A stretch of 64,000 nucleotides of DNA from a virus (IMGVR_UViG_3300008267_000780:1-64000), one strand, 5' to 3'; shown: positions 23,050 to 61,489, counted from the stretch's first letter. Translations and numbers: made by a program. Notes: generated by a model not told the origin, from the letters alone.

Positions 23050-23481
23050 ATGAAAAATATAACCACTATCCTACAGGAGAAAAATGTGAAAGTCGACACT
23101 TTGCCCGACAACATTCAAAGTGCAATTGAAAATTCAATGAACCTTTTCGAAGACATTCAAACTTTAGAAGACACGTTGACTGAAGAGTCTACAGATGAAG
23201 AAAAAGCAGAATTCAACGAATTAAAGGAAACCCACGAAGATTTTAACGAACAGATTCTTGGGGCAATTGACAATTTTCAAGAAGAACTTGAAGCAAAGAA
23301 AAAAGCCCAAAATAATGCAAGTCCTGCGCCTGCGCCTGCGCCTGAACCAAAACCTGCAACACCTCCATCATCAAATCCCGAACCCAAAAAAAAAGGAATT
23401 GGATTTGGTACTTTCATTATCGGAGCGGCAGTTTTGATTGTAACTGCAGGTGCTGTTAATATGATGAGAAATAAGAACTAA
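23050..23481 (+). CDS. acidic protein with C-terminal membrane anchor
   Basis: Pro-rich linker, then KKKGIGFGTFIIGAAVLIVTAGAV. Confidence 0.75.
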   Translation: MKNITTILQEKNVKVDTLPDNIQSAIENSMNLFEDIQTLEDTLTEESTDEEKAEFNELKETHEDFNEQILGAIDNFQEELEAKKKAQNNASPAPAPAPEPKPATPPSSNPEPKKKGIGFGTFIIGAAVLIVTAGAVNMMRNKN

Positions 23482-23690
23482 TGGAAAAAATACCCCAACA
23501 CTATTTTGCGTTTAATCCACAGTCTGTCCGTTGGATGGATATGGTGTTTGTTGCACCTATTATGATTTATGCGGGTGTGAAGGGGGATTTTAAACCATAT
23601 GTGAAATTTTCACTCATCGCGATTGGCTCTTTGACTTTTCTTTACAACGGCATTAATTATGTAACCAATTTGCAAAACGGAGAAAAATGA
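23481..23690 (+). CDS. two-TM small membrane protein
   Basis: VRWMDMVFVAPIMIYAG and SLIAIGSLTFLYNG. Confidence 0.7.
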   Translation: MEKIPQHYFAFNPQSVRWMDMVFVAPIMIYAGVKGDFKPYVKFSLIAIGSLTFLYNGINYVTNLQNGEK

Positions 23691-23980
23691 GTTACCGTAT
23701 TACAAGATACACTTTTGAACAGGCTAAAAAATTGGGGGTGACTGTAAAGCCGTCCACAGTTCAAGGCAAAAAGATTGATGTATTCAAGAACGGAACGAAA
23801 TTGGCCTCAGTTGGTGCTATAGGGTACAATGATTATCCAACATTTATGCGATTGGAGCGCGAGGGAAAGGTTCCTTCAGGAACAGCGAATTTGCGTCGGA
23901 AAGCATATAAAATCAGACATCAAAAAGACAGAACCGTCCGTGGAAGTAATGGATGGTACGCTGACAAATTATTATGGTAA
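23687..23980 (+). CDS. Tlr6F-like basic protein
   Basis: KPST..GKK..V...G..GY.DY...RR.AY..RH......G..A..LLW pattern. Confidence 0.7.
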   Translation: MSYRITRYTFEQAKKLGVTVKPSTVQGKKIDVFKNGTKLASVGAIGYNDYPTFMRLEREGKVPSGTANLRRKAYKIRHQKDRTVRGSNGWYADKLLW

Positions 23981-24132
23981 TGGACAAGAAATTAAAAGTA
24001 GTAATCGTGGCCTCAGTAGGTATTGCTGCAATATTGATTGGAGTGTCTTTGCTCTTTATTCAAAGGGGTATTGACCGAAAAGCAATTACAGAAGAAGACC
24101 GAAATGTTTTAAGACAAATTCGAATTTCATAA
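23980..24132 (+). CDS. small membrane protein (50 aa, not in ORF track)
   Basis: MDKKLKVVIVASVGIAAILIGVSLLFIQRG...; TAATG overlap. Confidence 0.65.
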   Translation: MDKKLKVVIVASVGIAAILIGVSLLFIQRGIDRKAITEEDRNVLRQIRIS

Positions 24133-24134
24133 TT

Positions 24135-24860
24135 ATGGAAATCAAGATACCTGCAATTCAAAAGGAGTGGAAAGTCCCTGCAAATCAACCACCTTGGAAA
24201 AGTCAAGCAACGGCTGTGATAAAAAAAATCAAGGCGAATTATAGTGGGCAAATGGCAAAAGCATCGCAATACACAGGGGTTCCTGTGAATATTTTGGTAG
24301 CGTTTGCCGCCACAGAAAGTGGAGGCGCGTTGAATCAAACTTTAAATGGTCCATCCAAAGGAATTATGCAAGTAAACCCTTCTTCGGCTTGGCAAGCACT
24401 ATCTGACCAAATCAAAGTCGATACGATAGGTAGATTCTACCCCCTTTACCAATTGGCCCCTAATGCATTCGTGGTGAAAAAACCCGTTGCTACAAACTCA
24501 GTAGGAAAGGCTACGGATTATTTGACCTTGAAACCTGTAACTACAGCGTCCGCATATCTTGGGCAAAGAATGGTCGCTGATGCGCAATTTGCTATTTATA
24601 TGGGTTCGTTGTTATTGGCACAGTTAATAGCGGGTACAATCGCTAAAACAGGCCAAATCAGACTTGACCACATCATCATTAAATACAATGCGGGTACGGG
24701 ACGATTCAGGCAGGTGGTAACGAGCAGAGGTTTGGAAAGCGCGAGTGTGGACACAACACAGTTGTATAATCAGTTACCAATTCCTGTTTCTCAAGCGTAC
24801 ATCGTCAAAATGATGGGAATAAATGGCTATTTAGATGTTCAAAAACAGGGTTTGGCGTAA
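24135..24860 (+). CDS. lytic transglycosylase (SLT family)
   Basis: ILVAFAATESGG (catalytic E-S), GIMQV, YNAG, YIVK. Confidence 0.85.
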   Translation: MEIKIPAIQKEWKVPANQPPWKSQATAVIKKIKANYSGQMAKASQYTGVPVNILVAFAATESGGALNQTLNGPSKGIMQVNPSSAWQALSDQIKVDTIGRFYPLYQLAPNAFVVKKPVATNSVGKATDYLTLKPVTTASAYLGQRMVADAQFAIYMGSLLLAQLIAGTIAKTGQIRLDHIIIKYNAGTGRFRQVVTSRGLESASVDTTQLYNQLPIPVSQAYIVKMMGINGYLDVQKQGLA

Positions 24861-24930
24861 ATAATATGACGGCATTGAACTGTAGAAAAAACTCACTATT
24901 TTTGTTTTAATCAATTAACTACATAATACT

Positions 24931-25557: not shown

Positions 25558-25911
25558 ATGGAAAATTTAACAGGAGCACCCGCAGCAGCCGCAGCACCCG
25601 CTGCCCCCGCAGCCCCCGCTGCACCCGCAGCACCTGCAGCACCCGTAATGGCGCAAGGTGGTAGTGTAGCAGATGCCGCACCGAAAATGGTAGAGGGTGG
25701 CGACGTTTCATCAATAGAAACCAATTGGGGAACTTGGATTGCAATTGGCTTGGTGTCACTTACGCTTGTTTCATTGATTTTACAGATTGCTGTACATCGC
25801 AAAAATTTAAAGAAAGTCGATGCAGACGATGAAGCATTGCAAAAAGATGTCAGGGAACTGAAAATGAATGTGAAAAAACAAATGGGCGAAAAGTATGAAA
25901 CCTTGGCTTGA
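25558..25911 (+). CDS. membrane protein with PAA repeat and MAQGG/MVEGG motifs
   Basis: MENLTG-(PAA)n-VMAQGG...KMVEGG, TM WIAIGLVSLTLVSLILQIAV. Confidence 0.7.
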   Translation: MENLTGAPAAAAAPAAPAAPAAPAAPAAPVMAQGGSVADAAPKMVEGGDVSSIETNWGTWIAIGLVSLTLVSLILQIAVHRKNLKKVDADDEALQKDVRELKMNVKKQMGEKYETLA

Positions 25912-26542
25912 CGAAGTCACGTATGGCAACCCAAATGATGAATTACTTCCCTATTTAGAAAAAGGGGAGTTTGATTTCGTATTCGAAGCACTCAAAAAAT
26001 TCCCACCGCCTAAAAATTCTTCGGAAACTACGCGGGATGAAATGAGAGAACTTATTTCGATTCAGAACTCTCCTGAGCAAAAAAACGAAGAAATTATGTC
26101 ACGGTATTTGAACTATGACAAAAATTTCGGAGATGTATTCAAAACTTATTGCAAAGACACAATAGGGGAAAATATGGATGACGTAATCGACCAAATTACA
26201 AAAGATGGTTTTTACGTCCTGACAAAATTAAAATTCTTTTACCAAAGGCCGCGTCCCTATCAGTTGGCACAATATTTAAGGGCGCGTCTTTTTCCTTATG
26301 CTGCAGCCACCGCTTTGACACCTGCATATCCTTCAGGACACTCGTTTGAGTCATATGCTTTGGCAGAATATATTGGAAGTAAGTATCCCGAACATTATCA
26401 GTTTTTGACTGATTTATCACACGATATATCAATTAGTCGATTATTTCTTGGATTGCATTTTGCCACTGATTTAGATTTTGGCAGATTTGCGGCTAAGAAA
26501 TATGTAGGCTCAAAGCAATTTGCAAGTAAATATGGAATATGA
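25895..26542 (+). CDS. PAP2/haloperoxidase-superfamily phosphatase
   Basis: KFFYQRPRP, YPSGH, SRLFLGLHFATD: all three PAP2 motifs. Confidence 0.9.
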   Translation: MKPWLDEVTYGNPNDELLPYLEKGEFDFVFEALKKFPPPKNSSETTRDEMRELISIQNSPEQKNEEIMSRYLNYDKNFGDVFKTYCKDTIGENMDDVIDQITKDGFYVLTKLKFFYQRPRPYQLAQYLRARLFPYAAATALTPAYPSGHSFESYALAEYIGSKYPEHYQFLTDLSHDISISRLFLGLHFATDLDFGRFAAKKYVGSKQFASKYGI

Positions 26543-26945
26543 ATTTCTCGTAACACCAATCGGCAAGCCGAGAATGACCCAACGGGACAAGTGGTTAAAT
26601 CCACCCCGTAAACCAATATTGAATTACAGAATTGCAAAACACGGTATTCAACATTATGCCTGTGAACAAAATTTTACTTTGCCCGAAATAATTAATGTTA
26701 TTTTTGTTTTACCTGTTTCAGAATCTTGGAGCAATAAGAAAAAAACATCAATGATTGGGCAGCCACATCGCCAAAAACCCGATTTGGATAATATCCTCAA
26801 ATTTTTGATGGATAGCCTTCTCCCAAACGGAGGTGATGAAGTTGTGCATACCATAAACGCCCGTAAAATTTGGGGTGAACACGGTAAAATATTAATTGAA
26901 ACAAAAAATGACTCGACAACGGAAAATCGAAACGAAGCCAATTGA
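26532..26945 (+). CDS. rusA: RusA-like Holliday junction resolvase
   Basis: KPRMTQRDKW, HRQKPDLDNILKFLMDSL..DE. Confidence 0.8.
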   Translation: MEYEFLVTPIGKPRMTQRDKWLNPPRKPILNYRIAKHGIQHYACEQNFTLPEIINVIFVLPVSESWSNKKKTSMIGQPHRQKPDLDNILKFLMDSLLPNGGDEVVHTINARKIWGEHGKILIETKNDSTTENRNEAN

Positions 26946-27342
26946 ACAATTATTCTCGGCATTGAGTGAGACGCTCAATGAAATTGGGTATATGCGAACC
27001 ATTCACCTACTGAGAAAAGGTCAAGAAAACGTATGGAATTCAGACTTGAAAGTTGCTACTGATGCAGTTTGCAAGGTATTTAATATTTCTCCCGATGTGG
27101 TATTTGGTAAATCAAGAAAATATCCCCGAAAATATGCTTTCGCTATTTGGGTTTATTTATCGTACACCAAATTAAATTACACGCTCCCCGATTTAGTGAA
27201 CTATACCCATAAGTCTTTGTCGACAATCAGCAAGGCTAAAGGCAGTATCGATAATCGAAAAAGCGTCACCGCATTTGAAAAGAAAATTAACGAAAAACTT
27301 GATGAATGCATACAAATCATAAATGAAATCAAACCCGAATAA
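26908..27342 (+). CDS. DnaA C-terminal-like HTH protein
   Basis: VCKVFNISPDVVFGKSRK...YTLPDLVNYTHKSLSTISKA. Confidence 0.6.
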   Translation: MTRQRKIETKPIEQLFSALSETLNEIGYMRTIHLLRKGQENVWNSDLKVATDAVCKVFNISPDVVFGKSRKYPRKYAFAIWVYLSYTKLNYTLPDLVNYTHKSLSTISKAKGSIDNRKSVTAFEKKINEKLDECIQIINEIKPE

Positions 27343-27344: not shown

Positions 27345-28319
27345 ATGGAAAATACAGAAAATGTGAATTCAGAAATCATTGATGATTTCTCCCCGCTTAC
27401 TCAGGACAATGTAATCCAACGTGATTATACAAAACCAAATGTTGACTTCTCTCAAGTCAATGCAACCCCTATTGAAGAACCTGTATTCGTAGCCCCCTCT
27501 TTTGAGGATATGGATGCTAATTGGAATTCCAAAAATGTCGAAGAAGCACAAATTGTAGATGAAAAAGCAAGTGCTAATCCATATACAGAAAATCTTGACA
27601 AGAAAGACCAAAGAAAAGCATCAGCCGCATTGGTTGAAGCCCTTTTGGATGGATACACTCAATTGAACAAATTTGGGAATAAACTCGTTCAATTCAATCC
27701 TGAAAAAATACAGGGAATGATGCGCTCAGGGGAAATAGACCCTGATTTGACCATTCCAATTAACGGTAGAAATATCGGAGTTCTTGATTATGTGAATGCA
27801 TACAATGAAGAAACTTCCTCAGTTATTTCCGTTGATGATGACTTCAAAGACAAGGTACGTCCATTGTTAATTGAAGAGTTTATGGAGCGCAACATCGGGA
27901 TGACCCGATTGCAATTGATTGGATATTATTTTGGAACTGATTTATTGACTAAGGGAACCTTGGTTTATTCATTGAGGAAACAGAATCAAGCAGTATTGGA
28001 TTCTTTGGTGGAAATTAGTCAAAATAACCGTCCCGCTCCAACACCTCAGGCAAGTCGTGTGCAACAGTCAGAACCAATTAGAGAAGAGGAACCTGTGAGA
28101 AAATCACAACGTGAATTCGTAGAGCCTGAAGAGGAATACGCAGTTGTCGAAGAGTTTGAACCCGTGACGGTAGTAAAAACTGCCAATGACGATGTTAGTC
28201 GCTCAAGAAGACCACAGGCAGGACCTAAGTTTGGTGACTCTGCAATTTTGGAGCAAATGGAACAAATCGCAAATGGTGAGCCTTCAGGTAAGCGTAGAGG
28301 TAGACCAAGGAAAAAATAA
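27345..28319 (+). CDS. acidic protein with C-terminal AT-hook, possible packaging accessory
   Basis: ends KRRGRPRKK; immediately upstream of the packaging ATPase. Confidence 0.55.
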   Translation: MENTENVNSEIIDDFSPLTQDNVIQRDYTKPNVDFSQVNATPIEEPVFVAPSFEDMDANWNSKNVEEAQIVDEKASANPYTENLDKKDQRKASAALVEALLDGYTQLNKFGNKLVQFNPEKIQGMMRSGEIDPDLTIPINGRNIGVLDYVNAYNEETSSVISVDDDFKDKVRPLLIEEFMERNIGMTRLQLIGYYFGTDLLTKGTLVYSLRKQNQAVLDSLVEISQNNRPAPTPQASRVQQSEPIREEEPVRKSQREFVEPEEEYAVVEEFEPVTVVKTANDDVSRSRRPQAGPKFGDSAILEQMEQIANGEPSGKRRGRPRKK

Positions 28320-28327: not shown

Positions 28328-29149
28328 ATGAGAGAACCATTATTGGGCGTAGCCGTCGGAAAGAAAGGTGTAGGTAAAACCTTTACGACCAATAGGGTCA
28401 TAAAACAATATGTGATGGGTAATCCCGCTTCGGGAATTATGCCAAGAAAAGTTTTGATTTTAGATGCAAACGATGAATATACTGAGTACAAAGCGATTGC
28501 ATTAAAAGATTTGATGTTGTTTAGTGTGCACCCTATGGTAGAAGCAAGAAGAATTAGGCCAATTCACGCGGATGGTAAAAAAATGACCTTGGACGATTTG
28601 GCAACCACTTTGAATTACATTTTGGAAGTTTTTTCGGGTGGACTTTTATTGATTGAGGATATTAATCGTTTCACTTCTGATTTTATGCCTCAAGATTTGA
28701 TGGGAGCAATTGCAACAAATCGACATCGTGATTTGGATATCATTTTGCACTATCAAGGAATAGGTCGTATTGGAACAAAAGTGTGGCAAAACATAAATTG
28801 GCTCAGGATGCATAAAATTACTGAGTCAGCGATGCGACACGCGAAGAAGTTTGAAGACAAATATGAAATAATCCGCATATGCGAATTAATGGTCAATACA
28901 CAATTCTTTGCAGGTAACGAAAGGTACTATCAATATATTGATTGTGAGAATATGTGCTTTCAAGGTAAGGTAGATGAAAAGTTGTTTGCAGAAGCCTGTA
29001 AATTGTTTATTGAAGAGAATTATCGTAGAATTATTTCGCCTCTTTTACAAATTCGTGGAGTGGGTGACAAAAAGAAATTCACGGCTGATACTGCAATGAA
29101 GTCAGAAATGGAAAGATTAAGGAAAATGTACTTGAAAAAACAATTGTAA
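28328..29149 (+). CDS. genome packaging ATPase, A32/P9-like (FtsK-HerA superfamily)
   Basis: Walker A GKKGVGKT near the N-terminus, Walker B LLLIED, NRH...IILHYQ Arg-finger/Gln motif; 273 aa, no nuclease domain. Confidence 0.8.
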   Translation: MREPLLGVAVGKKGVGKTFTTNRVIKQYVMGNPASGIMPRKVLILDANDEYTEYKAIALKDLMLFSVHPMVEARRIRPIHADGKKMTLDDLATTLNYILEVFSGGLLLIEDINRFTSDFMPQDLMGAIATNRHRDLDIILHYQGIGRIGTKVWQNINWLRMHKITESAMRHAKKFEDKYEIIRICELMVNTQFFAGNERYYQYIDCENMCFQGKVDEKLFAEACKLFIEENYRRIISPLLQIRGVGDKKKFTADTAMKSEMERLRKMYLKKQL

Positions 29150-29182
29150 GTTACTTTAAGTCTACTATGTAATCAATAAGCG

Positions 29183-29209
29183 AACCCCCTTTAAAACAGG
29201 GGGTTTTTT
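29183..29209 (+). terminator. intrinsic terminator after the ATPase
   Basis: AACCCCCT-TTAAAAC-AGGGGGTT-TTTT. Confidence 0.8.
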
Positions 29210-29287: not shown

Positions 29288-29295
29288 TATTTTTG
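29288..29295 (+). promoter_or_regulatory. Bacteroidota -7 element upstream of the capsid unit
   Basis: TATTTTTG 40 nt before ATG 29336; no clear -33 element. Confidence 0.45.
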
Positions 29296-29335: not shown

Positions 29336-29449
29336 ATGAACGTAGAATCTTTAAAAAAAATCGGAGGACAAGTCCTTTTAATTGTAGTCGGTGTATTAAT
29401 TGCTAATGAAGTTCAAAAGCAAATTGACAAACGACGCGCAGCAATGTAA
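29336..29449 (+). CDS. 37-aa membrane peptide co-transcribed with the MCP (not in ORF track)
   Basis: MNVESLKKIGGQVLLIVVGVLIANEVQKQIDKRRAAM. Confidence 0.7.
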   Translation: MNVESLKKIGGQVLLIVVGVLIANEVQKQIDKRRAAM

Positions 29450-29489
29450 ATTCACAAAAACCAAAAACCTTAAAAAAAAAACTTAGACT

Positions 29490-30188
29490 ATGAGTAATAT
29501 CCGTAAATACCTTGCTGACGCACAGAATCGTGCTCACGAGGGCTTCTTGAATGCCGATGGCTTCTTTGATGACGATTTGAACTTCACCGCAGGTGATGAT
29601 TTTATGTCTGCTAATGGCGACCCTATGCCTGCAGCGGCTCCAACCTCTCAGCCTTACATCATCCAAATTGCAAACACAGGTAGTGCTGTTTCCAATTTCA
29701 GTGTGTTGGGTTCATACGAACAGTTGAGTGATACGGCAGCGTTCACTTCAGGTTCGTACACTTCAGGAAACGTGACGATTTCGTCTGCTATTCCTAACGT
29801 GACTTACCAACAGATGCTTTACCAATTTATGAACAACCCGTTCAGCATTGGTTTGACTTACATTCAGTCAGCATCAAGCACTCAGTTGTTGGAAACAATC
29901 AGCGTACAAACACGTGACGCGAATGGTAACTTGGCACAAAAGCCATTGGTGCCAACCGTGGACCCATATCAGTTTCAGACTACAGTCCTTGCTCTCCGCT
30001 TCGGATACAGAATCGATGGTTACACCAAATTGATTTTGAACCAAGTGTTAGCATCGACCACTGTGAAATTGTACTTGTACCCTGCAGACAACATCAATTT
30101 GGCTCGTGGATTGTCAGGTCGCGCTGTATCAAAAGATTTCAGCAGCCCAGGCATTGTGCGTGCTCAAACCGTGAAAATTCAGGGTTAA
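29490..30188 (+). CDS. candidate major capsid protein (single jelly-roll-like)
   Basis: 232 aa, beta-strand-rich; C-ending codon bias (TTC/AAC/ATC/TAC); own terminator-bounded unit next to the packaging ATPase. Confidence 0.65.
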   Translation: MSNIRKYLADAQNRAHEGFLNADGFFDDDLNFTAGDDFMSANGDPMPAAAPTSQPYIIQIANTGSAVSNFSVLGSYEQLSDTAAFTSGSYTSGNVTISSAIPNVTYQQMLYQFMNNPFSIGLTYIQSASSTQLLETISVQTRDANGNLAQKPLVPTVDPYQFQTTVLALRFGYRIDGYTKLILNQVLASTTVKLYLYPADNINLARGLSGRAVSKDFSSPGIVRAQTVKIQG

Positions 30189-30210: not shown

Positions 30211-30248
30211 AAAAGGGGCGAAGGCAAACAGCCTCGCCCCTTTTTTTT
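30211..30248 (+). terminator. strong intrinsic terminator after the MCP
   Basis: GGGGCG-A-AGGC-AAACA-GCCT-CGCCCC-T8, preceded by an A tract. Confidence 0.9.
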
Positions 30249-30271: not shown

Positions 30272-30442
30272 ATGGCCTACAAAGTCAAATTGGGTAACAA
30301 GGATTACTTCACAGAAGAATTTTCTTCTGAGACGGAAGCAAAAAGAGCAAAGTATCACGCCATCATTGGCGCGAAAACTTTTCGTAGTGCATCAAAATCG
30401 ATGGACACGAAAATTGTAAAAGTTGTAAAAAAGAAAAAATAA
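30272..30442 (+). CDS. small basic protein (56 aa, not in ORF track)
   Basis: MAYKVKLGNK...KIVKVVKKKK; TAATG overlap with next gene. Confidence 0.6.
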   Translation: MAYKVKLGNKDYFTEEFSSETEAKRAKYHAIIGAKTFRSASKSMDTKIVKVVKKKK

Positions 30443-30825
30443 TGACAATCTACGAGTATATCGCGCGAAATAATCCCACAGGTGCTAAAAGGGTGATTGA
30501 ATCTTTTGGTTATGTGGTGACACAACCTAAAAAAATGGGCGATAACCTTCGTATGTTGGTAGCGCAGGAAGGAGAGCCCGCATTAAAAGCGGTGGTAGAC
30601 TTACACCCTGATAAAGACTTGATTTTGGAAGTTTTCGGAAACAGTCAGGGCGTTAAAGGAACAGGAGATAATTTCTTTGGAGCCGACGGCCTACTTCAAA
30701 GCGCAGTTTTGAATAACAACCAACAGCAAAATGATAGCAACAATAAAATGGTGCTTCAAACAAACACATTAATTGTGGCCTTATCACTCCTTGTAGTTGC
30801 AGGGTTAATATTAAAGAATCGATGA
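30442..30825 (+). CDS. virion membrane protein (C-terminal TM)
   Basis: FFGADG motif; TM LIVALSLLVVAGLIL. Confidence 0.7.
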   Translation: MTIYEYIARNNPTGAKRVIESFGYVVTQPKKMGDNLRMLVAQEGEPALKAVVDLHPDKDLILEVFGNSQGVKGTGDNFFGADGLLQSAVLNNNQQQNDSNNKMVLQTNTLIVALSLLVVAGLILKNR

Positions 30826-31364
30826 AAAATTTGAAACCTAACGAAATTTACGCTGTATCAGCGATGACCATCGACAACAATACTGAAGGGGTAAAAACTC
30901 TGATTACAAAGTATGGTGTCATTTTGCCAAAAAATGCAAGTCGCGCAGATGTTGACAAAGCATTTGCGGCACTTTTAAGAAAGAGCAAATCGTTTAGAAA
31001 TGATTTTGCTTTATTGGCTGCGAATGAAAGTCAAAAGAGCGATAACTTCTCCAATTTTATGGAATTTTTAGGTATGTCAGGCAGAGGTATTGGAACCACA
31101 AGTGCTCCTTTAAAAACTCCTGACCCAATTCCTGTGAAGACAAGTTTGCCGAACACAACTGCTAAAAAACCAAGTGCATTTGCTGAAGCGTTTGATGCTG
31201 ATACAATCAGAAATGTCATCAATACAGGATTGAATATTTGGGCTACCCGCTCAGGTACGACAGCCGCAACTACAAATGATTTACAATCAGGTAGGGATTC
31301 ATTGAATCTACAACCTCAAAATGAATCTACACGGGGTATCGGTACTACAGGAATCATCAGTTAA
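30822..31364 (+). CDS. putative virion protein, possibly C-terminally truncated
   Basis: 180 aa; ends GIGTTGIIS just where neighbours begin a TM. Confidence 0.65.
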   Translation: MKNLKPNEIYAVSAMTIDNNTEGVKTLITKYGVILPKNASRADVDKAFAALLRKSKSFRNDFALLAANESQKSDNFSNFMEFLGMSGRGIGTTSAPLKTPDPIPVKTSLPNTTAKKPSAFAEAFDADTIRNVINTGLNIWATRSGTTAATTNDLQSGRDSLNLQPQNESTRGIGTTGIIS

Positions 31365-31370
31365 AAAGTA

Positions 31371-31595: not shown

Positions 31596-31596
31596 T

Positions 31597-32016: not shown

Positions 32017-32114
32017 AAATTGCTGATGATAAAAAGAAAAAAGGTGGTGCATTGATGCTTGTAGGCTTTGCCTTACTCGCTTATGTTGTTTATAAAATAA
32101 TCGAAAGTAAATGA
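32013..32114 (+). CDS. 33-aa membrane peptide (not in ORF track)
   Basis: MKIADDKKKKGGALMLVGFALLAYVVYKIIESK; ATGA overlaps at both ends. Confidence 0.65.
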   Translation: MKIADDKKKKGGALMLVGFALLAYVVYKIIESK

Positions 32115-32335: not shown

Positions 32336-32343
32336 ATAAAACT

Positions 32344-32433: not shown

Positions 32434-32444
32434 TTTTCATCAAA

Positions 32445-54900: not shown

Positions 54901-57900
54901 TACAGGCTCAAGCGGTACTGCGGGCTCAAGCGGCTCTTCAGGCACATCGGGTGCAAATGGCTCAAGTGGTTCTGCAGGTTCAAGTGGTACTTCAGGAACA
55001 GCAGGTTCAAGTGGTACTTCAGGAACGCGAGGTTCGTCAGGGTCATCAGGCTCTACAGGTTCAAGTGGGTCTACGGGTACGTCAGGCTCAAGCGGTTCAA
55101 GTGGCACATCGGGCTCGAGCGGGTCTTCAGGCACATCAGGAGCGAATGGTTCAAGCGGCTCTTCAGGAACAAGTGGTTCTTCAGGAAGCACGGGTTCAAG
55201 TGGGTCTACGGGTTCATCAGGAACAGCAGGTTCTTCAGGAAGTGCGGGTTCTACAGGGTCTTCAGGCTCTTCAGGAACAGCAGGTTCATCAGGTACATCG
55301 GCATCAAGTGGTAGTTCAGGAAGTGCAGGCACATCAGGCGCAAATGGCTCGAGCGGCTCAAGCGGAACGAGCGGTTCTTCAGGAAGCGCGGGTTCTACAG
55401 GGTCTTCAGGCTCTTCAGGAACAGCAGGTTCATCAGGCACATCGGGTTCTGCGGGTAGTGCAGGCTCAAGCGGCTCTACGGGCTCAAGCGGTACATCAGG
55501 CTCAAGCGGGTCTTCGGGTACATCAGGTGCAAATGGCTCAAGCGGTTCAAGTGGAACAAGCGGGTCTGCAGGTTCAAGTGGTTCTACGGGCTCATCGGGT
55601 TCGTCAGGAACTGCAGGTTCAAGCGGTACTGCAGGTTCTTCAGGTTCTACAGGCTCAAGCGGGTCTACGGGCTCAAGCGGAACTGCGGGTTCAAGCGGGT
55701 CTTCAGGCACATCGGGTGCAAATGGCTCAAGCGGTTCAAGTGGAACAAGTGGTTCTGCGGGGTCTTCGGGAACTTCGGGAACAGCGGGGTCAAGCGGTAC
55801 TTCAGGAACTCGGGGTTCATCGGGTTCATCGGGTTCGACAGGCTCAAGTGGTTCAACGGGTACATCAGGCTCAAGCGGTTCGAGCGGAAGCGCGGGTACG
55901 TCAGGTGCAAACGGTTCGAGCGGAACAAGCGGTTCTTCAGGAAGTGCGGGTTCTACAGGCTCTTCAGGCTCTTCAGGAACAAGTGGTTCAAGCGGAACAA
56001 GCGGAAGTGCAGGTTCAAGCGGTTCTACAGGCTCAAGTGGGTCTACGGGTACTTCGGGCTCAAGTGGCTCAAGCGGAAGTGCAGGCACATCAGGTGCAAA
56101 CGGTTCTTCAGGAACGGCAGGTTCTTCAGGAAGCGCAGGTTCAAGTGGGTCTACGGGTTCTTCAGGAACTGCAGGTTCTTCAGGTAGTGCAGGTTCTACG
56201 GGTTCTTCGGGTTCTTCAGGAACTGCGGGTTCGAGTGGAACTTCGGGCTCATCAGGAAGCGCAGGTTCAAGCGGAAGCGCGGGTACATCGGGTGCAAATG
56301 GTTCAAGCGGAACTTCGGGCTCATCAGGAAGTGCAGGTTCTACGGGCTCATCAGGTTCGTCAGGAACTGCAGGCTCAAGTGGAACATCAGGAACGAGGGG
56401 TTCTTCAGGCTCAAGCGGTTCTACGGGTTCCTCAGGCTCCACAGGAACCTCAGGCTCAAGCGGAAGCGCAGGCACATCAGGTGCAAACGGTTCTTCAGGA
56501 ACGTCAGGTTCTTCAGGAAGCGCAGGTTCAAGTGGGTCGACAGGGTCAAGTGGAACATCAGGTTCTTCAGGAAGTGCGGGTTCTACAGGCTCATCAGGTT
56601 CTTCGGGAACAGCGGGTTCATCAGGAACATCGGCATCAAGTGGAAGTTCAGGAAGCGCAGGTACTTCAGGGGCAAACGGTTCTTCGGGTACTTCGGGCTC
56701 ATCAGGAAGCGCAGGTTCTACGGGCTCATCAGGCTCAAGCGGAACAGCGGGCTCATCAGGAAGCGCAGGTTCGAGTGGCTCTACAGGGTCAAGCGGAACA
56801 GCGGGCTCATCAGGAAGTGCAGGTTCTACGGGTTCAAGCGGTTCTACGGGTACATCGGGCTCAAGCGGTTCGAGTGGAAACACGGGGGCAGCGGGGTCAA
56901 GCGGAACGAGTGGGTCTTCAGGTAGCGCAGGTTCAACGGGTTCGAGCGGGTCTTCAGGAACTGCGGGTTCTTCAGGAACATCGGGCACAAGAGGTTCATC
57001 AGGTTCAAGTGGGTCTACAGGTTCGAGTGGTTCTACGGGTACATCAGGCTCAAGCGGTTCGAGTGGAAACACAGGAGCAGCGGGGTCAAGCGGAACGAGC
57101 GGGTCTTCAGGAAGTGCAGGTTCGACAGGTTCAAGTGGTTCTACAGGTACATCGGGCTCAAGCGGTTCGAGTGGAAACACGGGCGCAGCGGGTTCAAGTG
57201 GAACGAGCGGGTCTTCAGGCAGCGCAGGTTCGACAGGTTCAAGTGGTTCTACGGGTACATCGGGCTCAAGCGGTTCGAGTGGAAACACAGGTGCTGCGGG
57301 TTCAAGTGGAACGAGCGGTTCGAGTGGAAACACAGGTGCGGCAGGTTCTTCGGGAACTTCAGGCTCAAGCGGCTCAAGTGGTAACACAGGTGCGGCAGGT
57401 TCAAGCGGAACGAGCGGTTCGAGTGGAAACACAGGAGCGGCAGGTTCTTCGGGAACTTCAGGCTCAAGCGGCTCAAGTGGTAACACAGGTGCGGCAGGTT
57501 CAAGCGGAACGAGCGGTTCGAGTGGAAACACGGGTGCGGCAGGTTCATCAGGGACTTCAGGTGCAAACGGTGCTGCGGGCTCAAGCGGAACAAGCGGTTC
57601 ATCAGGAACTTCAGGCGCAAACGGAGCGGCAGGTTCTTCAGGAACGTCGGGTACACGAGGTTCATCAGGAACTTCGGGCGCAAACGGAGCAAACGGTTCG
57701 TCAGGAACTTCAGGCGCAAACGGAGCAAATGGTTCGTCAGGAACTTCGGGAGCAAATGGAGCGGCAGGTTCTTCGGGAACTTCGGGCGCAAATGGAGCGG
57801 CAGGTTCCTCGGGAACTTCGGGTACACGTGGTTCAAGTGGAACATCGGGTGCAAATGGAGCAAATGGTTCATCAGGTACGTCAGGCGCGAATGGAGCAAA

Positions 57901-58474
57901 CGGTTCATCAGGTACATCAGGCGCGAATGGGGCGGCAGGTGCTGCAGGTTCATCAGGTACGAGCGGTACGAGCGTAGCGGTGAGCGGTACGACAAACAGA
58001 ATCGTTAAATTCACTGCATCGACCACGATAGGAAACGCAAACGCGTCCGACGATGGAACGACATTCGAAGTATTGAATACGGTTGGATTTAAGGCAGCCA
58101 AATCGTTAGCGGTAGGTGCTTTGTCACCATCCGCAACCACAGGACGAATTGATGCTTCAAACGACATCGTAGCGTTCTCTACATCAGACAAACGATTCAA
58201 AGAAAACGTGAAGCGAATTGAAAACGCTCTCGAGAAAATCAAGACAATCGGTGGATACTCATTCGATTGGCGCGAGGAAGGCTTCGAGGCTCACGGATTC
58301 AAAGGAAGTGATGTCGGAGTAATCGCGCAGGAAATCGAATCAGTGTTGCCCGAAATCGTGAAGGTGAAAGCCAACGGATTCAAGGGTGTACGTTACGAAA
58401 AAATTATCGCCTTGGTGATTGAAGCAATCAAGGAGTTGGATGACAAAGTTGAACAATTAAAGAAGCAACAGTAA
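45923..58474 (+). CDS. giant 4183-aa collagen-like fibre with C1q/BclA-like internal domain and C-terminal peptidase S74 chaperone
   Basis: Gly at every third residue over about 3400 aa; ITVQYSGIYEFSF..FIRKNG; SDKRFKENV...GVIAQE...VRYEKIIALVIEAIKEL. Confidence 0.9.
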   Translation: MAKNILITPYRNSTNPLELPKIDFINGSTAITLQVEETTQSITYVGSAGTLLQINNDLTGTTVSTKNIAITGVIKNTGITSNSGLNDFVVVDIATGQFYYRSAPTGTSGSSGQSGTSGTSGANGSSGTSGANGSSGTSGANGSSGTSGANGSSGTSASSGTSGSTGSSGTSGANGSSGTSGVNGSSGTSGTSGENGSSGTSGENGSSGTSGENGSSGTSGENGSSGTSGENGSSGTSGENGSSGSSGTSGANGSSGTSGANGTSGTSGGSGASISDGWDWGTPINATKMYSSNGALDSSSVLLNISETSLTSQNYASQFSLIGIGSKITTRGGLFGANVTEWEVTSVTDSGTYYEFGVTYLSGTQWTPSTGDDILCDFAIAGQAGTSGTAGTSGANGSSGTSGANGTSGTSGENGTSGTSGSTGSSGTSGAGVANYYAQYSSSVSQAIAVVNTPQVITYNTVEIENGISFSGGQITVQYSGIYEFSFSPQVEKTQGGTAVNVDFFIRKNGFDVIRTDSIIGLVSNSQLQLPFVSLTLELLQNDFIELLFASSSTFVQITAEAAKTTPFVAPAAPSVIVSLKNIGVAAVAYTSTSGSSGQSGTAGVSGTSGSTGTSGSSGESGTAGTSGIAGTSGTSGDSGSSGTSGTGGSSGSSGDSGSSGTSGTGGSSGTSGTGGSSGSSGNSGSSGTSGTGGSSGTSGTGGSSGSSGNSGSSGTSGTGGSSGSSGNSGSSGTSGTGGSSGSSGDSGSSGTSGTGGSSGTSGTGGSSGTSGTGGSSGSSGDSGSSGTSGTGGSSGSSGDSGSSGTSGTGGSSGTSGSSGSSGSTGTSGSTGSSGSSGSAGTSGSTGSSGSAGTSGSTGSSGTSGSTGSSGTSASSGSSGSAGTSGESGSAGTSGSTGSSGSSGSTGTSGSTGSSGSSGSAGTGGSSGTSGTGGSSGSSGDSGSSGTSGTGGSSGTSGTGGSSGSSGDSGSSGTSGTGGSSGTSGSSGSSGSTGTSGSTGSSGSSGSAGTSGSTGTSGSTGTSGSSGTSGSTGSSGSTGSSGTSGSSGTSGSTGSSGTSGSTGTSGSAGSAGSSGSTGSSGTSGSSGTSGSTGSSGSTGSSGTSGSSATSGSAGSSGTAGSAGSSGTSGANGSSGTSGSAGSSGSTGSSGTSGSSGTSGSAGSSGSTGSSGTSGSSGTSGSTGSSGSTGSSGTSGSTGSSGSTGTSGSTGTSGSSGSSGTSGANGSSGTSGSAGSSGSTGSSGTSGSSGTSGSTGSSGSTGSSGTSGSSGTSASSGTSGTAGTSGSAGTSGENGSSGTSGSSGSAGSTGSSGTSGSSGTSGSTGSSGSTGSSGTSGSSATSGSTGSSGTSGANGSSGTSGSSGSAGTSGSTGSSGTSGSSGTSGSTGSSGSTGSSGTSGTSATSGSAGSSGTSGSTGSSGTSGSAGSSGTSGSVGSSGTSGSAGSSGTSGSTGSSGSTGSSGTSGTSATSGSAGSSGSTGSSGTSGSSGTSGSTGSSGSTGSSGTSGSTGSSGTSGANGSSGTSGSAGSSGTAGSAGSSGTSGANGSSGTSGSSGSAGSSGSTGSSGTSGSSGTSGSTGSSGSTGSSGTSGSAGTSGSSGSSGTSGANGSSGTSGSAGSSGSTGSSGTSGSSGTSGSTGSSGSTGSSGTSGSSGTSASSGSSGSAGTSGSAGTSGANGSSGTSGSSGSAGSSGSTGSSGTSGSSGTSGSAGSSGSTGSSGTSGSAGSSGTSGSAGSSGTSGANGSSGTSGSSGSAGSSGSTGSSGTSGSSGTSGSTGSSGSTGSSGTSGSSGTSASSGSSGTSGSAGSSGTSGANGSSGTSGSAGSAGSSGSTGSSGTSGSSGTSGSTGSSGSTGSSGTSGSSATSGSAGSSGTAGSSGSSGTSGANGSSGTSGSAGSTGSSGTSGSTGSSGTSGSSGTSGTAGSSGTSGSTGSSGSTGSSGTSGSSGTSGANGSSGTSGSSGSAGSSGSTGSSGTSGSSGTSGSTGSSGSTGSSGTSGSSATSGSAGSSGTSGSAGSSGTSGANGSSGTSGSAGSSGSTGSSGTSGSSGTSGSAGSSGSTGSSGTSGSAGSSGTSGSAGSSGSAGSSGTSGANGSSGTSGSAGSSGSTGSSGTSGSSGTSGSTGSSGSTGSSGTSGSAGSSGTSASSGSSGSAGTSGSSGTSGANGSSGTSGSAGSAGSSGSTGSSGTSGSSGTSGSTGSSGSTGSSGSTGSSGSTGTSGSSGSSGTSGANGSSGTSGSAGSSGSTGSSGTSGSSGTSGSAGSSGSTGSSGTSGSSATSGSAGSSGTAGSAGSSGTSGANGSSGSSGTSGSSGSSGSTGSSGTSGSSGTSGSAGSSGSTGSSGTSGSSGTSASSGSSGSAGTSGSSGTSGANGSSGSSGTSGSSGSAGSTGSSGSSGTSGSSGTSGSTGSSGSTGSSGSTGTSGSSGSSGTSGANGSSGSSGTSGSAGSSGTSGSAGSSGTSGSAGSSGTSGTAGSSGTSGTRGSSGSSGSTGSSGTSGSSGTSGSTGSSGSTGSSGTSGSSGTSASSGSSGSAGTSGSSGTSGANGSSGTSGSSGSAGSSGSTGSSGTSGSSGTSGSAGSSGSTGSSGTSGSAGSSGTSGSAGSSGTSGANGSSGTSGSSGSAGSSGSTGSSGTSGSSGTSGSAGSSGSTGSSGTSGSAGSSGTSGSAGSSGTSGANGSSGTSGSSGSAGSSGSTGSSGTSGSSGTSGSTGSSGSTGSSGTSGSAGSSGTSGSAGSSGTSGSAGSSGTSGTAGSSGTSGTRGSSGSSGSTGTSGSSGTSGSTGSSGSTGSSGTSGSSGTSASSGSSGSAGTSGSSGTSGANGSSGSSGTAGSSGSAGSSGSTGSSGTSGSSGTSGSTGSSGSTGSSGSTGTSGSSGSSGTSGANGSSGSSGTSGSAGSSGTSGSAGSSGTSGSAGSSGTSGSAGSSGSTGSSGTSGSSGSSGTSGANGSSGSSGTAGSSGSAGSTGSSGSSGTAGSSGTAGSSGSAGSSGSTGSSGTAGSSGSSGTSGANGSSGSAGSSGTSGTAGSSGTSGTRGSSGSSGSTGSSGSTGTSGSSGSSGTSGSSGSSGTSGANGSSGSSGTSGSSGSTGSSGSTGSSGTAGSSGSAGSTGSSGSSGTAGSSGTSASSGSSGSAGTSGANGSSGSSGTSGSSGSAGSTGSSGSSGTAGSSGTSGSAGSAGSSGSTGSSGTSGSSGSSGTSGANGSSGSSGTSGSAGSSGSTGSSGSSGTAGSSGTAGSSGSTGSSGSTGSSGTAGSSGSSGTSGANGSSGSSGTSGSAGSSGTSGTAGSSGTSGTRGSSGSSGSTGSSGSTGTSGSSGSSGSAGTSGANGSSGTSGSSGSAGSTGSSGSSGTSGSSGTSGSAGSSGSTGSSGSTGTSGSSGSSGSAGTSGANGSSGTAGSSGSAGSSGSTGSSGTAGSSGSAGSTGSSGSSGTAGSSGTSGSSGSAGSSGSAGTSGANGSSGTSGSSGSAGSTGSSGSSGTAGSSGTSGTRGSSGSSGSTGSSGSTGTSGSSGSAGTSGANGSSGTSGSSGSAGSSGSTGSSGTSGSSGSAGSTGSSGSSGTAGSSGTSASSGSSGSAGTSGANGSSGTSGSSGSAGSTGSSGSSGTAGSSGSAGSSGSTGSSGTAGSSGSAGSTGSSGSTGTSGSSGSSGNTGAAGSSGTSGSSGSAGSTGSSGSSGTAGSSGTSGTRGSSGSSGSTGSSGSTGTSGSSGSSGNTGAAGSSGTSGSSGSAGSTGSSGSTGTSGSSGSSGNTGAAGSSGTSGSSGSAGSTGSSGSTGTSGSSGSSGNTGAAGSSGTSGSSGNTGAAGSSGTSGSSGSSGNTGAAGSSGTSGSSGNTGAAGSSGTSGSSGSSGNTGAAGSSGTSGSSGNTGAAGSSGTSGANGAAGSSGTSGSSGTSGANGAAGSSGTSGTRGSSGTSGANGANGSSGTSGANGANGSSGTSGANGAAGSSGTSGANGAAGSSGTSGTRGSSGTSGANGANGSSGTSGANGANGSSGTSGANGAAGAAGSSGTSGTSVAVSGTTNRIVKFTASTTIGNANASDDGTTFEVLNTVGFKAAKSLAVGALSPSATTGRIDASNDIVAFSTSDKRFKENVKRIENALEKIKTIGGYSFDWREEGFEAHGFKGSDVGVIAQEIESVLPEIVKVKANGFKGVRYEKIIALVIEAIKELDDKVEQLKKQQ
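47702..57973 (+). repeat. 10.3-kb degenerate 9-bp-period coding repeat (Gly-X-Y; X,Y mostly Ser/Thr/Ala/Asn)
   Basis: directly visible; internal block duplications, e.g. 48361-48450 versus 48870-48960. Confidence 0.95.
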
Positions 58475-59364: not shown

Positions 59365-59834
59365 TAGTTGTTTTTTATGGGAAAAGAAACTCAGGCAAGA
59401 CAACTCTTTGCCGTGAGTTTTATGGTTGGGTAAAACAGAATTTGCCTCTCAGATGTCATTACTTAGATGCAGACAAACTTCGGTTTGTTTATGGTCTAAA
59501 AGGATTCTCTGAGCAAACAGAAAGAGCATTGGTACAAAAAGCGATGGAAATATCGCGTTATGAGGAAAGTTTAAATGACGTTGTTTTGATTAGTATTTCT
59601 TTTGCATATAAGGACCAAAGAGAAGTTTTTGAAGAAAACAGGGGAATTTTATGGATACCTTTGACACACGATGAGTCTCAAAGGCCCACGAATAAAAAAG
59701 AATTTGAAAACGCTCAGTTCGAAAAATTGGAAAATGAAATTGACACATCGCAAAATGATGTGAAATCGGCATTAAATACAGTAATCCAACGCTACAAAGA
59801 TTTTTGTGTAACTTCGCAATACAAGGGGAAATGA
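59361..59834 (+). CDS. P-loop kinase, adenylylsulfate-kinase-like
   Basis: GKRNSGKTT and YLDADKLR. Confidence 0.65.
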   Translation: MIVVFYGKRNSGKTTLCREFYGWVKQNLPLRCHYLDADKLRFVYGLKGFSEQTERALVQKAMEISRYEESLNDVVLISISFAYKDQREVFEENRGILWIPLTHDESQRPTNKKEFENAQFEKLENEIDTSQNDVKSALNTVIQRYKDFCVTSQYKGK

Positions 59835-60052
59835 CAACTCAACAGCAACAAAGCGCAATGATTGAAAAATGGGTAAATCGCATACTTCTTGGAATATGCG
59901 CATTTTTCTGTGCTCAATTATTTGCGGATATGAAAACTCAACGTCACGACATAGAAGAAGTGAAATTGAGTAACGCGAGAATTGAAACGGAAATAAAGTA
60001 CATCAGAGAAATGGTGGAGCCGTATCGAAATAATAAAGTAGTTAACAATTAA
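59831..60052 (+). CDS. small TM plus coiled-coil protein, holin-like
   Basis: RILLGICAFFCAQLF followed by a coil. Confidence 0.5.
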   Translation: MTTQQQQSAMIEKWVNRILLGICAFFCAQLFADMKTQRHDIEEVKLSNARIETEIKYIREMVEPYRNNKVVNN

Positions 60053-60058
60053 AAAATT

Positions 60059-60361
60059 ATGCCAATACCTGTAGCAATAGCGGCAGCATTAATCACAACG
60101 GCAGGTAGTACGGCTGTAGGTGGTTTAGATGTTGTCTCAAAACGAAAACTCGAAAAAAACCTTGCTAAATTAAACGCTGCGGAGGCCGAGGCTCTTCAAA
60201 AGCAATTAGCAAAAGAAAAGGATGCTCAAACCAAATTGATTTTACTGCAGGATGCTGCGGATAAAGCGCAAAAAAGAAGCACGACGAATATAATTATTGG
60301 CTCTGCAATCGGCTTAATTGGCTTGATTGCGGCAATTATTGCATTAAAAAACAAAAAGTAA
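60059..60361 (+). CDS. virion membrane protein
   Basis: hydrophobic N-terminus and C-terminal TM plus KNKK. Confidence 0.7.
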   Translation: MPIPVAIAAALITTAGSTAVGGLDVVSKRKLEKNLAKLNAAEAEALQKQLAKEKDAQTKLILLQDAADKAQKRSTTNIIIGSAIGLIGLIAAIIALKNKK

Positions 60362-60678
60362 TGGAGTTTTCAAAAGAAGTAAAAAACGCGGTCATCATTG
60401 CAGTTGCGACAATTACTTTATATGTGCTGTTGAAACCAAAGAAAAATAGTCTTAGCAAGCCTATGAAGGCGACTAAAGACGAACTGAGTCAAAAGCAAAA
60501 TGCTCGAACCATTTTGGATGCTTACTTAAATGCAGTTGATGCAAAAGAATCATCAACAGCACTACAGAAATTGAACGCAATTTTTGCGGACGAATATTCA
60601 ATGAAGGTGTATAAAACAAAGAGTGGCAGTTATGTAGCGCGAACCTTAGACGGTAAAGATGTATTAGTAGCAAAATAA
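60361..60678 (+). CDS. membrane protein (N-terminal TM)
   Basis: AVIIAVATITLYVLL followed by KPKK. Confidence 0.7.
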   Translation: MEFSKEVKNAVIIAVATITLYVLLKPKKNSLSKPMKATKDELSQKQNARTILDAYLNAVDAKESSTALQKLNAIFADEYSMKVYKTKSGSYVARTLDGKDVLVAK

Positions 60679-61127
60679 TGGCCACGTTCAATCCAATCAT
60701 AACGACATATCCAAATGACGCAATCAGAGTTACAAGCGCGTCTGATATTAGTTATGAAACGGTGAACGCAAGTGTGGGTACGGGTTACTATTATGATTTC
60801 AAAAGTTTTTATCAATTTTCATCGGTCTTAGAGCAACTTCTTGAACCCATATACTTGCTGAAATTTAGTAAACAGGGTGACAGGAATGTTTACTATATGA
60901 ATAATACAATTGACCCATATCAGGGTACATCGGCATTGTCTATAGATACCGAATTTCTTGATTACAGGTTTGATTCAAACAACGCTTTCATCCCAAGAAT
61001 TCTTGGAAATACAACCTTGTTTTATCGCTTCGATATTCACGAATTAAGTAATGAAGATTTATTGACAAGGGGAGAAAGTAATTTTGGAATGATAGATTTT
61101 TACGAAGATTACGAAATAGATTTCTGA
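60678..61127 (+). CDS. minor capsid protein, paralogue of the MCP C-terminal part
   Basis: QLLEPI versus QLLETI, TIDPYQ versus TVDPYQ, YRFD versus YRID, ILGNTT versus VLASTT. Confidence 0.7.
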   Translation: MATFNPIITTYPNDAIRVTSASDISYETVNASVGTGYYYDFKSFYQFSSVLEQLLEPIYLLKFSKQGDRNVYYMNNTIDPYQGTSALSIDTEFLDYRFDSNNAFIPRILGNTTLFYRFDIHELSNEDLLTRGESNFGMIDFYEDYEIDF

Positions 61128-61489
61128 TGCCCGCCAAAAAAATGATATTAAATATTGAAAACCATACGCCCTATCCCGCGTATATTTCTCTTTTAGGTGG
61201 TCTTCAGGACCCAAACCAATATAATATCAATGCTCAAACAGAATATTTGTATGATATCGGTAACTACAATTGGGCGACATCAAGCATATGGACTTTACAA
61301 TTCAAAAGGGTTGGAGCATCGACTTTCAGTGTACAACAGGGGCCTACAAACGGAAGTTCACAGGCATTTTTGATAAATTTAAATCTTTCAAGTTTAGGGT
61401 TGTTCAATACGCTTAGAGTGAGTTCAACCATATTTCTTCTGTACACTTTCAATGATTACTACGAGTTTGGTACACTTACAATAAACTAA
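61127..61489 (+). CDS. minor capsid protein, N-terminus resembles the first MCP strands
   Basis: MILNIENHTPYPAYISLLG versus YIIQIANTGSAVSNFSVLG. Confidence 0.55.
   Translation: MPAKKMILNIENHTPYPAYISLLGGLQDPNQYNINAQTEYLYDIGNYNWATSSIWTLQFKRVGASTFSVQQGPTNGSSQAFLINLNLSSLGLFNTLRVSSTIFLLYTFNDYYEFGTLTIN

Follow-up and report, generated by a model that had tools for sequence, protein, structure and literature searches.

What kind of particle is built by the late genes of a large virus found in lake and other freshwater samples? The question is raised by a stretch of 64,000 nucleotides (IMGVR_UViG_3300008267_000780:1-64000; the window), and above all by its single-strand block of late genes, which an earlier reading of the sequence (the sequence-only reading) assigned to a large tailless, membrane-containing virus of Bacteroidota with an A32-like ATPase and a capsid protein of the single jelly-roll type. 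Our analysis supports that proposal: the candidate capsid protein folds as a jelly roll, and searches for terminase, portal and HK97 capsid genes found none, so that the two refuting conditions named for it were both examined and neither held. We consider it very probable that the virus does without the tailed-phage kit and uses an FtsK-HerA packaging ATPase. That the particle is tailless and membrane-containing, with a jelly-roll protein of 232 amino acids (aa) as its main shell protein, is a reading we favour with distinctly less confidence. The features on which the first part of the argument turns are:

23050..61489, plus strand: late (particle-building) gene block, single-strand; all genes on the plus strand, many with overlapping start and stop codons.
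28328..29149, plus strand: predicted FtsK-HerA / A32-like genome-packaging ATPase, 273 aa (Walker motifs, fold match, profile match).
29182..29206, plus strand: intrinsic terminator after the ATPase gene (nine-pair G+C-rich stem, then a T run).
27345..28319, plus strand: 324-aa protein, probable DNA-binding packaging helper (alignment; always directly upstream of the ATPase gene).

The 273-aa protein carries an N-terminal Walker A motif (GKKGVGKT, residues 11-18) and, about 90 residues further on, a Walker B motif (LLLIEDI, 106-112); both are invariant in 12-17 relatives. Its match to Pfam DUF87/HerA (E 1.3e-3, 19.3 bits) falls under the cut-off of 23.2, and searches of solved structures by sequence and profile, made with this family and with the 232-aa and 260-aa families described below, returned nothing significant. 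The AlphaFold model, based on 17 relatives, reached a predicted local distance difference test (pLDDT) of 88.7 and a predicted template modelling score (pTM) of 0.85. When the model was submitted to Foldseek, B204 chains of STIV and STIV2 took the top ranks (E 5e-9 to 5e-7), B204 being the best and a near full-length match at 17% identity; VirB4 and TrwB were also among the matches. In profile comparisons the family aligned with the putative packaging ATPase of P23-77 (hhalign 92.9%, E 3.6e-7) over 152 columns that include both Walker motifs, while PRD1 P9 and SSIP-1 gp40 aligned with it at Walker A only. Because of the B204 fold match and the P23-77 profile match, we predict that the protein is an FtsK-HerA ATPase of the type that packages DNA in membrane-containing icosahedral viruses; by sequence it appears nearest to the P23-77 type. 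The call of an FtsK-HerA/A32-type ATPase, for which sequence matches gave weak hints, now has a strong structural match joined by a profile match. The 324-aa protein encoded upstream is acidic at its N-terminus; a conserved core and a linker rich in Pro and Glu follow, and the C-terminus is basic and AT-hook-like (KRRGRPRKK). A role as DNA-binding packaging helper is a reasonable guess, and on the same alignment the protein was rejected as a candidate double jelly-roll coat.

One explanation to be weighed is that the contig is a linear plasmid or other mobile element misclassified in virus catalogues. Besides the fold matches to VirB4 and TrwB, features that conjugative systems have as well speak for it: the inverted terminal repeats described below, domains of the polyvalent-protein type (DUF2958 with RelA_SpoT, and a weak LPD29), and the presence of an SLT enzyme and numerous membrane proteins alongside an FtsK-HerA ATPase. 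It is nevertheless extremely improbable: there is no relaxase, coupling protein or ATPase of VirB4 size, the 273-aa ATPase finds its best near full-length match in B204, an endolysin-like protein is encoded together with small membrane proteins and lipoproteins, the fibres carry an S74 chaperone domain, and at least nine metagenome studies of water contain copies that are nearly identical.

The next question concerns the genes of tailed phages. All proteins of at least 400 aa were compared with Pfam, and the main ones also with PHROGs and NCBIfam. Among these proteins no match was found to terminase, portal, HK97 capsid, tail tube, sheath or tape measure; the tail-related matches are to fibre families only and are driven by collagen repeats, and NCBIfam gave no match for ten key proteins. 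The claim that no recognisable terminase, portal, HK97 or tail genes lie in the 64 kb is thereby borne out, and it extends to the rest of the contig, where no gene in the 10.7 kb past the window exceeds 347 aa: genes for terminase, portal or HK97 capsid were detected neither in the 74.7-kb contig nor in the scanned 84-kb and 132-kb relatives. In the 132-kb relative, ten large proteins were scanned against PHROGs; they likewise included no terminase, portal or capsid protein and added a DNA methyltransferase and proteins of unknown function. The large proteins of the window itself are concentrated upstream of the late block:

8452..23035, plus strand: block of large proteins (835, 444, 467, 556, 454, 464, 1255 and 371 aa) with no structural matches.

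Between relatives, conservation is lowest in seven large unannotated proteins (8.4-22 kb), for which often 10-50% of the length is matched or none, while the conserved unannotated proteins are all of 330 aa or less. Since genes for terminase, portal and capsid would show the opposite (high conservation), and since family matches are lacking, the large upstream proteins were rejected as hidden forms of these three. Matches in the block are to a MoxR-type AAA protein (better conserved than its neighbors), a weak LPD29 and DUF2958 with RelA_SpoT (alarmone synthetase-like); the proteins would be cargo for host takeover or counter-defence, possibly injected.

The same data bear on the possibility of a tailed phage so divergent that its terminase, portal and HK97-fold capsid genes escape the profiles, the jelly roll then decorating the capsid. 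Tailed phages often carry S74 collagen-like fibres, RecT, RusA and Phg_2220_C, the fold matches of the 232-aa protein include jelly-roll cement proteins of such phages, and the ATPase weakly matches one 'terminase' family (phrog_2666, E 3.4e-4). The sole packaging-type ATPase, however, is 273 aa long, has no nuclease domain and is closest to B204 and the P23-77 ATPase; this, the lack of terminase or portal matches among proteins of 400 aa or more and the poor conservation of the large proteins make such a phage very unlikely.

A virus that packages its DNA without the tailed-phage kit is therefore the reading we carry forward, and the next question is what forms its shell. The gene of the candidate lies next to the ATPase gene:

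29288..29295, plus strand: TAnnTTTG element, a Bacteroidota-type -7 promoter box (motif scan).
29338..29451, plus strand: gene for a 37-aa hydrophobic peptide in the same unit as the coat candidate (read from the sequence; within the RNA-library contigs).
29490..30188, plus strand: single jelly-roll protein, 232 aa, candidate major capsid protein (fold model, conservation).
30213..30248 (about), plus strand: intrinsic terminator after the coat-candidate gene (G+C-rich hairpin, then eight T).

Structure prediction covered two proteins, the ATPase and this one. The model of the 232-aa protein (113 diverse members; pLDDT 86.9, pTM 0.79) begins with an N-terminal helix (residues 2-17); an acidic leader without order (20-45) leads to a jelly roll of eight strands (49-210), over most of which pLDDT is >90. 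On this model the fold can be regarded as settled, and what had been described as a beta-rich gene does encode a jelly roll. Fold matches include coat and penton jelly rolls of viruses (PR772 chain O, FLiP, PBCV-1, phiCjT23, PM2 and PRD1 P3). No specific link to the coat proteins of SSIP-1, P23-77 or PRD1 emerged. P23-77 VP16 and VP17 are absent among the listed fold matches, which does not prove that the folds differ.

The case that this protein is the coat is circumstantial; it is made because of the protein's conservation, its own promoter-terminator unit beside the ATPase gene, the RNA-library contigs and the lack of any other coat-like late protein. Between relatives the 232-aa protein is 72-75% identical where the ATPase is 75-76%, and 60% in the 132-kb relative; as judged from these alignments the two are the most conserved proteins of the lineage. 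Clustering divides the family into 1277 groups at 90% identity and still 598 at 50%; no group bears a name or a Pfam domain. The gene begins 340 bp past the ATPase gene, with a strong terminator between them, and its unit is bounded by terminators as had been claimed (29182-29206 and about 30213-30248), with the 37-aa peptide gene as an additional member. RNA libraries from rivers, four in number and each from a different study, have their longest and deepest contigs of a 19-kb stretch over this unit only, starting at 29312-29327 and ending at 30173-30202. One contig (29312-30202) reaches a depth of 19.5 and another (29327-30173) a depth of 9.1, most others there having about 2-7, although contig depth cannot rank genes, uncovered stretches are uninformative and the libraries may contain DNA; strong expression of the unit is a hint only.

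Several observations weigh against the 232-aa protein as coat and against the particle built around it, in addition to this limit on the RNA data. Coat role, internal membrane and tailless shape are all deduced from gene content. Carbohydrate-binding modules, picornavirus-type coats, TNF/C1q-like heads and tailed-phage cement proteins match the fold equally well, and one distant family member weakly matches the PHROG 'major head protein' (E 4.5e-4). When the 232-aa, 180-aa, 260-aa and 324-aa families were compared by hhalign with the structural proteins of SSIP-1, P23-77 and PRD1, nothing was found, the ATPases being the only link in these comparisons. Measured against the known groups, similarity to their coat proteins and a protein-primed polymerase were looked for without success, and the second jelly-roll gene does not adjoin the first. 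With two proteins folded, an unrecognized coat protein of another fold is possible, and the jelly-roll domain is matched six times in a 102-kb relative, so that it may have other roles.

These points converge on the main rival, in which the packaging ATPase is that of membrane viruses but the jelly roll is a spike, a decoration or a membrane-associated protein, the shell protein being still unrecognized or the particle pleomorphic or enveloped without an icosahedral shell. The generic nature of the fold matches, in which fibre heads, cement proteins and carbohydrate-binding modules rank as equals, speaks for it, as do the several copies in the 102-kb relative that adjoin glycosyltransferases, and folding covered few late proteins. 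We nevertheless think it unlikely. Among late proteins the conservation of the 232-aa protein is matched only by the ATPase and the HExxH protein, its promoter-terminator unit and deepest RNA contigs set it apart, neither the 324-aa nor the 260-aa neighbor is coat-like, and an ATPase of this class would, by analogy with PRD1 and STIV, imply a preformed rigid shell.

If the 232-aa jelly roll does form the shell, a further candidate is available for its vertices. When every protein of the window was screened with the coat-family profile, one clear paralogue came out:

60678..61127, plus strand: 149-aa jelly-roll paralogue, candidate vertex (penton) or second coat protein (hhalign).

The two families align with a probability of 97.9% (E 4.3e-13) over 106 columns and have a TIDPYQ motif in common. 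Both genes are present in the contig and in three of the four relatives searched; the fourth (94% complete) shows the 232-aa gene only. The 149-aa protein evolves faster, with identities of 84%, 43% and 27% compared with 91%, 72% and 60% for the 232-aa protein, and its gene lies at the end of the fibre region, 30 kb downstream. We infer a vertex protein and not a co-equal coat protein.

A double jelly-roll coat protein was not found, and there was no Pfam or PHROG capsid match among the proteins scanned. A tandem form is nevertheless part of the family: a 102,228-bp IMG/VR record, a further member of the lineage, encodes a 397-aa protein (L065:10001-11194) with two complete jelly-roll copies (E 3e-47 and 1.6e-44), which has an 86% identical counterpart among database proteins (P0128), and the family includes further tandem forms (P0181, 411 aa). 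The tandem protein is absent from the genome studied here. A shell of a single vertical jelly-roll species forming homo-hexamers is the long-hypothesized state preceding duplication into double jelly-roll coats. It is conceivable, if rather doubtful, that the shell here is of that pre-duplication kind, with homo-hexameric capsomers and the 149-aa paralogue at the fivefold vertices, in a design that scales to genomes of 72-132 kb, matures its leader by a zincin and bears micrometre-long glycosylated collagen fibres.

The zincin in question is a third conserved late protein:

33421..34203, plus strand: HExxH (zincin-type) conserved protein, 260 aa, candidate maturation protease (invariant motif).

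Residues H187, E188 and H191 are invariant in 60 sequences and are followed by conserved acidic residues; the family (1710 clusters) is about as conserved as the coat candidate. A protein-atlas match to DUF4344 metallopeptidases is weak (score 0.87), and the invariant HExxH motif led us to reject the protein as a second coat protein. A possible substrate motif, [FY]x[NGS][AFMLVI]xG with D, T, S, N, Q, H or E at the fifth position, has 11 occurrences among the late block's 5,164 residues, where shuffling gave 0.9 ± 0.9 (maximum 5 in 500), and two in the remaining 14,676 residues (1.9 expected), in a test that is partly circular as the pattern was defined on these very sequences. The sites fall in 29490-37171 and 58474-59061. 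Two lie in the disordered coat leader, and A41 in the second of these copies is more than 90% conserved across the 232-aa family. The motif may be a signal for proteolytic maturation, and cleavage of the leader by the HExxH protein is our hypothesis.

Signs of an internal lipid membrane are indirect and come from small membrane proteins and lipid enzymes:

30442..37979, plus strand: cluster of small proteins, 15 with one N- or C-terminal membrane helix (hydropathy scans).
24135..24860, plus strand: SLT lytic transglycosylase with a C-terminal membrane helix, PRD1 P7-like (Pfam SLT, E 5e-6).
25895..26542, plus strand: PAP2-type lipid phosphatase (Pfam PAP2, E 2.2e-9; conserved in all relatives).

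By hydropathy the late block (23050-61489) encodes 22 small single-pass membrane proteins, a count that excludes the 37-aa peptide and the PAP2 protein and comes close to the roughly 27 first reported; in most the helix lies at the extreme N- or C-terminus. Together with the PAP2 enzyme and a GDSL lipase encoded near the right end of the contig, they hint at a membrane inside the particle. The membrane helix of the transglycosylase lies near residue 152, and its family profile matches PRD1 P7 (E 1.2e-6). One membrane-anchored late protein of 170 aa (37467-37979) matches Pfam LEA_2 (E 7.4e-6, 26.8 bits against a cut-off of 25.4). Near the right end, a lysis-type cassette (contig 71720-73621; L001:10720-12621) encodes small membrane proteins, an endolysin-like protein and proteins with signal peptide and lipobox; it has the same place in the 84-kb relative and lies inside the late block in two other relatives. 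The endolysin-like protein (193 aa) matches phrog_3000 (E 1.6e-25). The virus is probably of the lytic type.

The second half of the late block is occupied by fibres and the enzymes that probably decorate them:

38386..40037, plus strand: pair of fibre proteins of 293 and 256 aa that resemble each other at the N-terminus, the 293-aa one being collagen-like (Pfam Collagen, E 2.8e-17; many tail-fibre PHROGs).
40034..45930, plus strand: three multidomain glycosyltransferase / FkbM-methyltransferase genes (Pfam).
45923..58474, plus strand: collagen-like fibre, 4183 aa, with a C-terminal Peptidase_S74 chaperone domain (Gly-X-Y runs; S74, E 4.1e-16).

In the 4183-aa fibre, 3,588 residues stand in Gly-X-Y runs, mostly G-S-S and G-T-S, interrupted by two small globular inserts. 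Collagen rises by about 0.29 nm per residue, so a triple helix of this protein would extend for about 1 micrometre; the fibre is probably glycosylated. Its gene is the one exception (54-57% G+C) to a composition of about 37% genome-wide. In the 293-aa fibre gene, RNA-library contigs (38565-38790) show many length variants, with skips of 53-98 bases in the collagen repeats, for which differences between strains or slippage during assembly may account.

The window is the first part of one contig of 74,717 bp, so that the 64 kb to which the sequence-only reading was confined understates the genome; CheckV puts completeness at 89%. Nearly all genes from 2.2 to 61.5 kb are on the plus strand, followed by a minus-strand arm and a short plus-strand block to the right end. 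No tRNA genes were found. IMG/VR contains close relatives, with 95% identity in the ATPase, of 84,705 and 84,420 bp; others, of 72,652 and 79,724 bp, are more distant. The 84,420-bp relative ends in perfect inverted terminal repeats of 127 bp (L022:1-127, L023:14295-14421), and the right end of our contig (74618-74702) carries the same repeat (92% over 86 bp) and stops within about 30 bp of the relative's terminus; the left end is about 6 kb short, a stretch that in the relative contains small genes only, none above 307 aa. Because of the repeats in this relative and the matching right end here, the genome is most likely linear with inverted repeats and about 84 kb long.

A contig of 132,486 bp from a metagenome-assembled genome (MAG), binned with Sediminibacterium, is syntenic with ours over roughly 100 kb and has a uniformly low G+C content; it looks like a larger relative and not a prophage. 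Its last 500 bp, which follow a run of 100 N, have a higher G+C content and three tRNA genes (Pro, Gln, Leu), and may be a scaffolding join. Genome sizes in the lineage span at least 72-132 kb, and the late block is syntenic across relatives of that range. PF03175 is absent from the contig and four relatives, as are DNA polymerase A and B motifs in all six frames; no DNA polymerase, protein-primed or other, that could replicate the inverted-repeat ends was detected.

The other genes claimed for the virus, those of tailed-phage type, are all present; besides the S74 fibre they are:

61606..62391, minus strand: RecT recombinase, start of the minus-strand early arm (Pfam RecT, E 9.5e-29).
26520..26945, plus strand: RusA (profile match).
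26896..27342, plus strand: DnaA_C-like helix-turn-helix protein (profile match).
3267..3917: Phg_2220_C protein (profile match).

A DUF3799 PDDEXK-like protein (contig 63833-64627) is a candidate partner nuclease of RecT. Two further proteins, of 97 aa (23687-23980) and 128 aa (8009-8395), are highly conserved, with weak sub-threshold matches to Pfam DUF5754 and DUF5824; the counterpart of the 128-aa protein in the 102-kb relative is the end of a 764-aa protein.

Evidence on the host comes from translation and promoter signals and from MAG bins. A Shine-Dalgarno-like tetramer precedes 7 of 90 genes, against a background rate of 16%, and TAnnTTTG boxes lie upstream of several gene units (motif scan); scarce Shine-Dalgarno sequences and TAnnTTTG boxes are typical of Bacteroidota. 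Roughly half of the 14 MAG contigs with the HExxH protein are labelled Bacteroidota (Sediminibacterium, Lishizhenia, Saprospiraceae and others), and the rest are scattered, as expected of mis-binned virus contigs. Because of these signals and bins, the hosts are probably Gram-negative lake bacteria of the Bacteroidota. DNA nearly identical to the contig (98-100% of sampled words) is present in runs of at least nine freshwater, lake and related studies.

How does this virus compare with those already known? The records compared are PRD1 (14,927 bp, linear), P23-77 (17,036 bp, circular) and SSIP-1 (43,788 bp, circular), and among them the statement that prokaryotic vertical jelly-roll, membrane-containing viruses are far smaller holds: SSIP-1 (43.8 kb), the largest bacterial virus of this kind among those compared, has about half as much DNA. 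In gene content the virus resembles all three. By its ATPase and single jelly rolls it would stand nearest to the P23-77 group (Halopanivirales: Matshushitaviridae, Sphaerolipoviridae, Simuloviridae), to which it is linked at the profile level through the ATPase (hhalign 92.9%). Other likenesses are a small single jelly-roll coat candidate with a second, shorter jelly-roll protein, and a structural block with many small membrane proteins and a transglycosylase. In contrast to P23-77, however, the genome is linear with inverted repeats and about 84 kb in place of 17 kb and circular, and hhalign finds no similarity to VP16 or VP17; the second jelly roll is 30 kb away and faster-evolving, not an adjacent, co-equal coat gene, and additions of the lineage are the putative HExxH protease, collagen fibres of giant size and the extensive block of variable proteins.

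Compared with B204 of STIV and STIV2 (Turriviridae), the ATPase is 17% identical and has about 60 extra C-terminal helical residues. STIV infects archaea, has a genome of about 17 kb and builds its coat from a double jelly-roll protein. PRD1 (Tectiviridae) has inverted terminal repeats of about 110-130 bp and a vertex fibre, P5, that is partly collagen-like. With it the lineage shares a linear genome with inverted terminal repeats (127 bp in the 84,420-bp relative), an SLT enzyme that is anchored in the membrane as P7 is, a large set of small membrane proteins and collagen-like fibres, but not a protein-primed family B polymerase (by PF03175 and motif scans) or a double jelly-roll coat, neither of which was found; P9 aligns at Walker A only, and the genome is about 5.6 times larger. 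SSIP-1 is tailless and membrane-containing, and its host genus, Salisaeta, is placed in Bacteroidota. Both viruses have one giant structural protein (SSIP-1 gp43, 2319 aa), whereas the homology detected is limited to Walker A of gp40, with no tblastn match, and the SSIP-1 genome is circular and half the size.

Neither the ATPase nor the 232-aa protein gave a tblastn match in 50,697 phage records, and we found no description of the lineage in the literature, our coverage of which is incomplete (subscription journals being mostly outside it). The expectation of an unusually large, possibly undescribed lineage is thus supported, and the virus probably represents a new group, of family level or above, within the tailless membrane-containing jelly-roll viruses.

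Gene content, the two folds, conservation, genome ends and distribution are what the data show; on this footing we propose the following scheme for a tailless particle with an internal membrane. The late genes would be read from one strand, and the strongly expressed 232-aa jelly roll would form the outer shell once its acidic disordered leader has been removed, perhaps by the conserved HExxH protease. Beneath the shell, about two dozen single-pass membrane proteins, the anchored transglycosylase and lipid enzymes would populate a host-derived membrane, and at the vertices the 149-aa paralogue would hold the collagen-like fibres, one of them about 1 micrometre long and probably glycosylated. 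The FtsK-HerA ATPase and the AT-hook protein would then pump the linear genome of about 84 kb, with its inverted terminal repeats, into the preformed particle via one vertex, and the endolysin would bring about release together with small membrane proteins, the genes of both lying near the right end.

Tailless membrane-lined viruses of bacteria are thought to be abundant in water and are known from few isolates of 10-44 kb. The lineage described here is very widespread (598 coat-candidate clusters at 50% identity, at least nine lake and freshwater studies) and its genomes range from 72 to more than 130 kb. If our reading is true, the design that joins such a packaging ATPase to a jelly-roll shell would not be restricted in bacteria to small genomes, and a large part of the viral dark matter of lakes would consist of non-tailed viruses that surveys based on terminase as a marker have missed. 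A single jelly-roll family with both paralogues and a tandem-fused form would, moreover, provide a direct test of the origin of double jelly-roll capsids.

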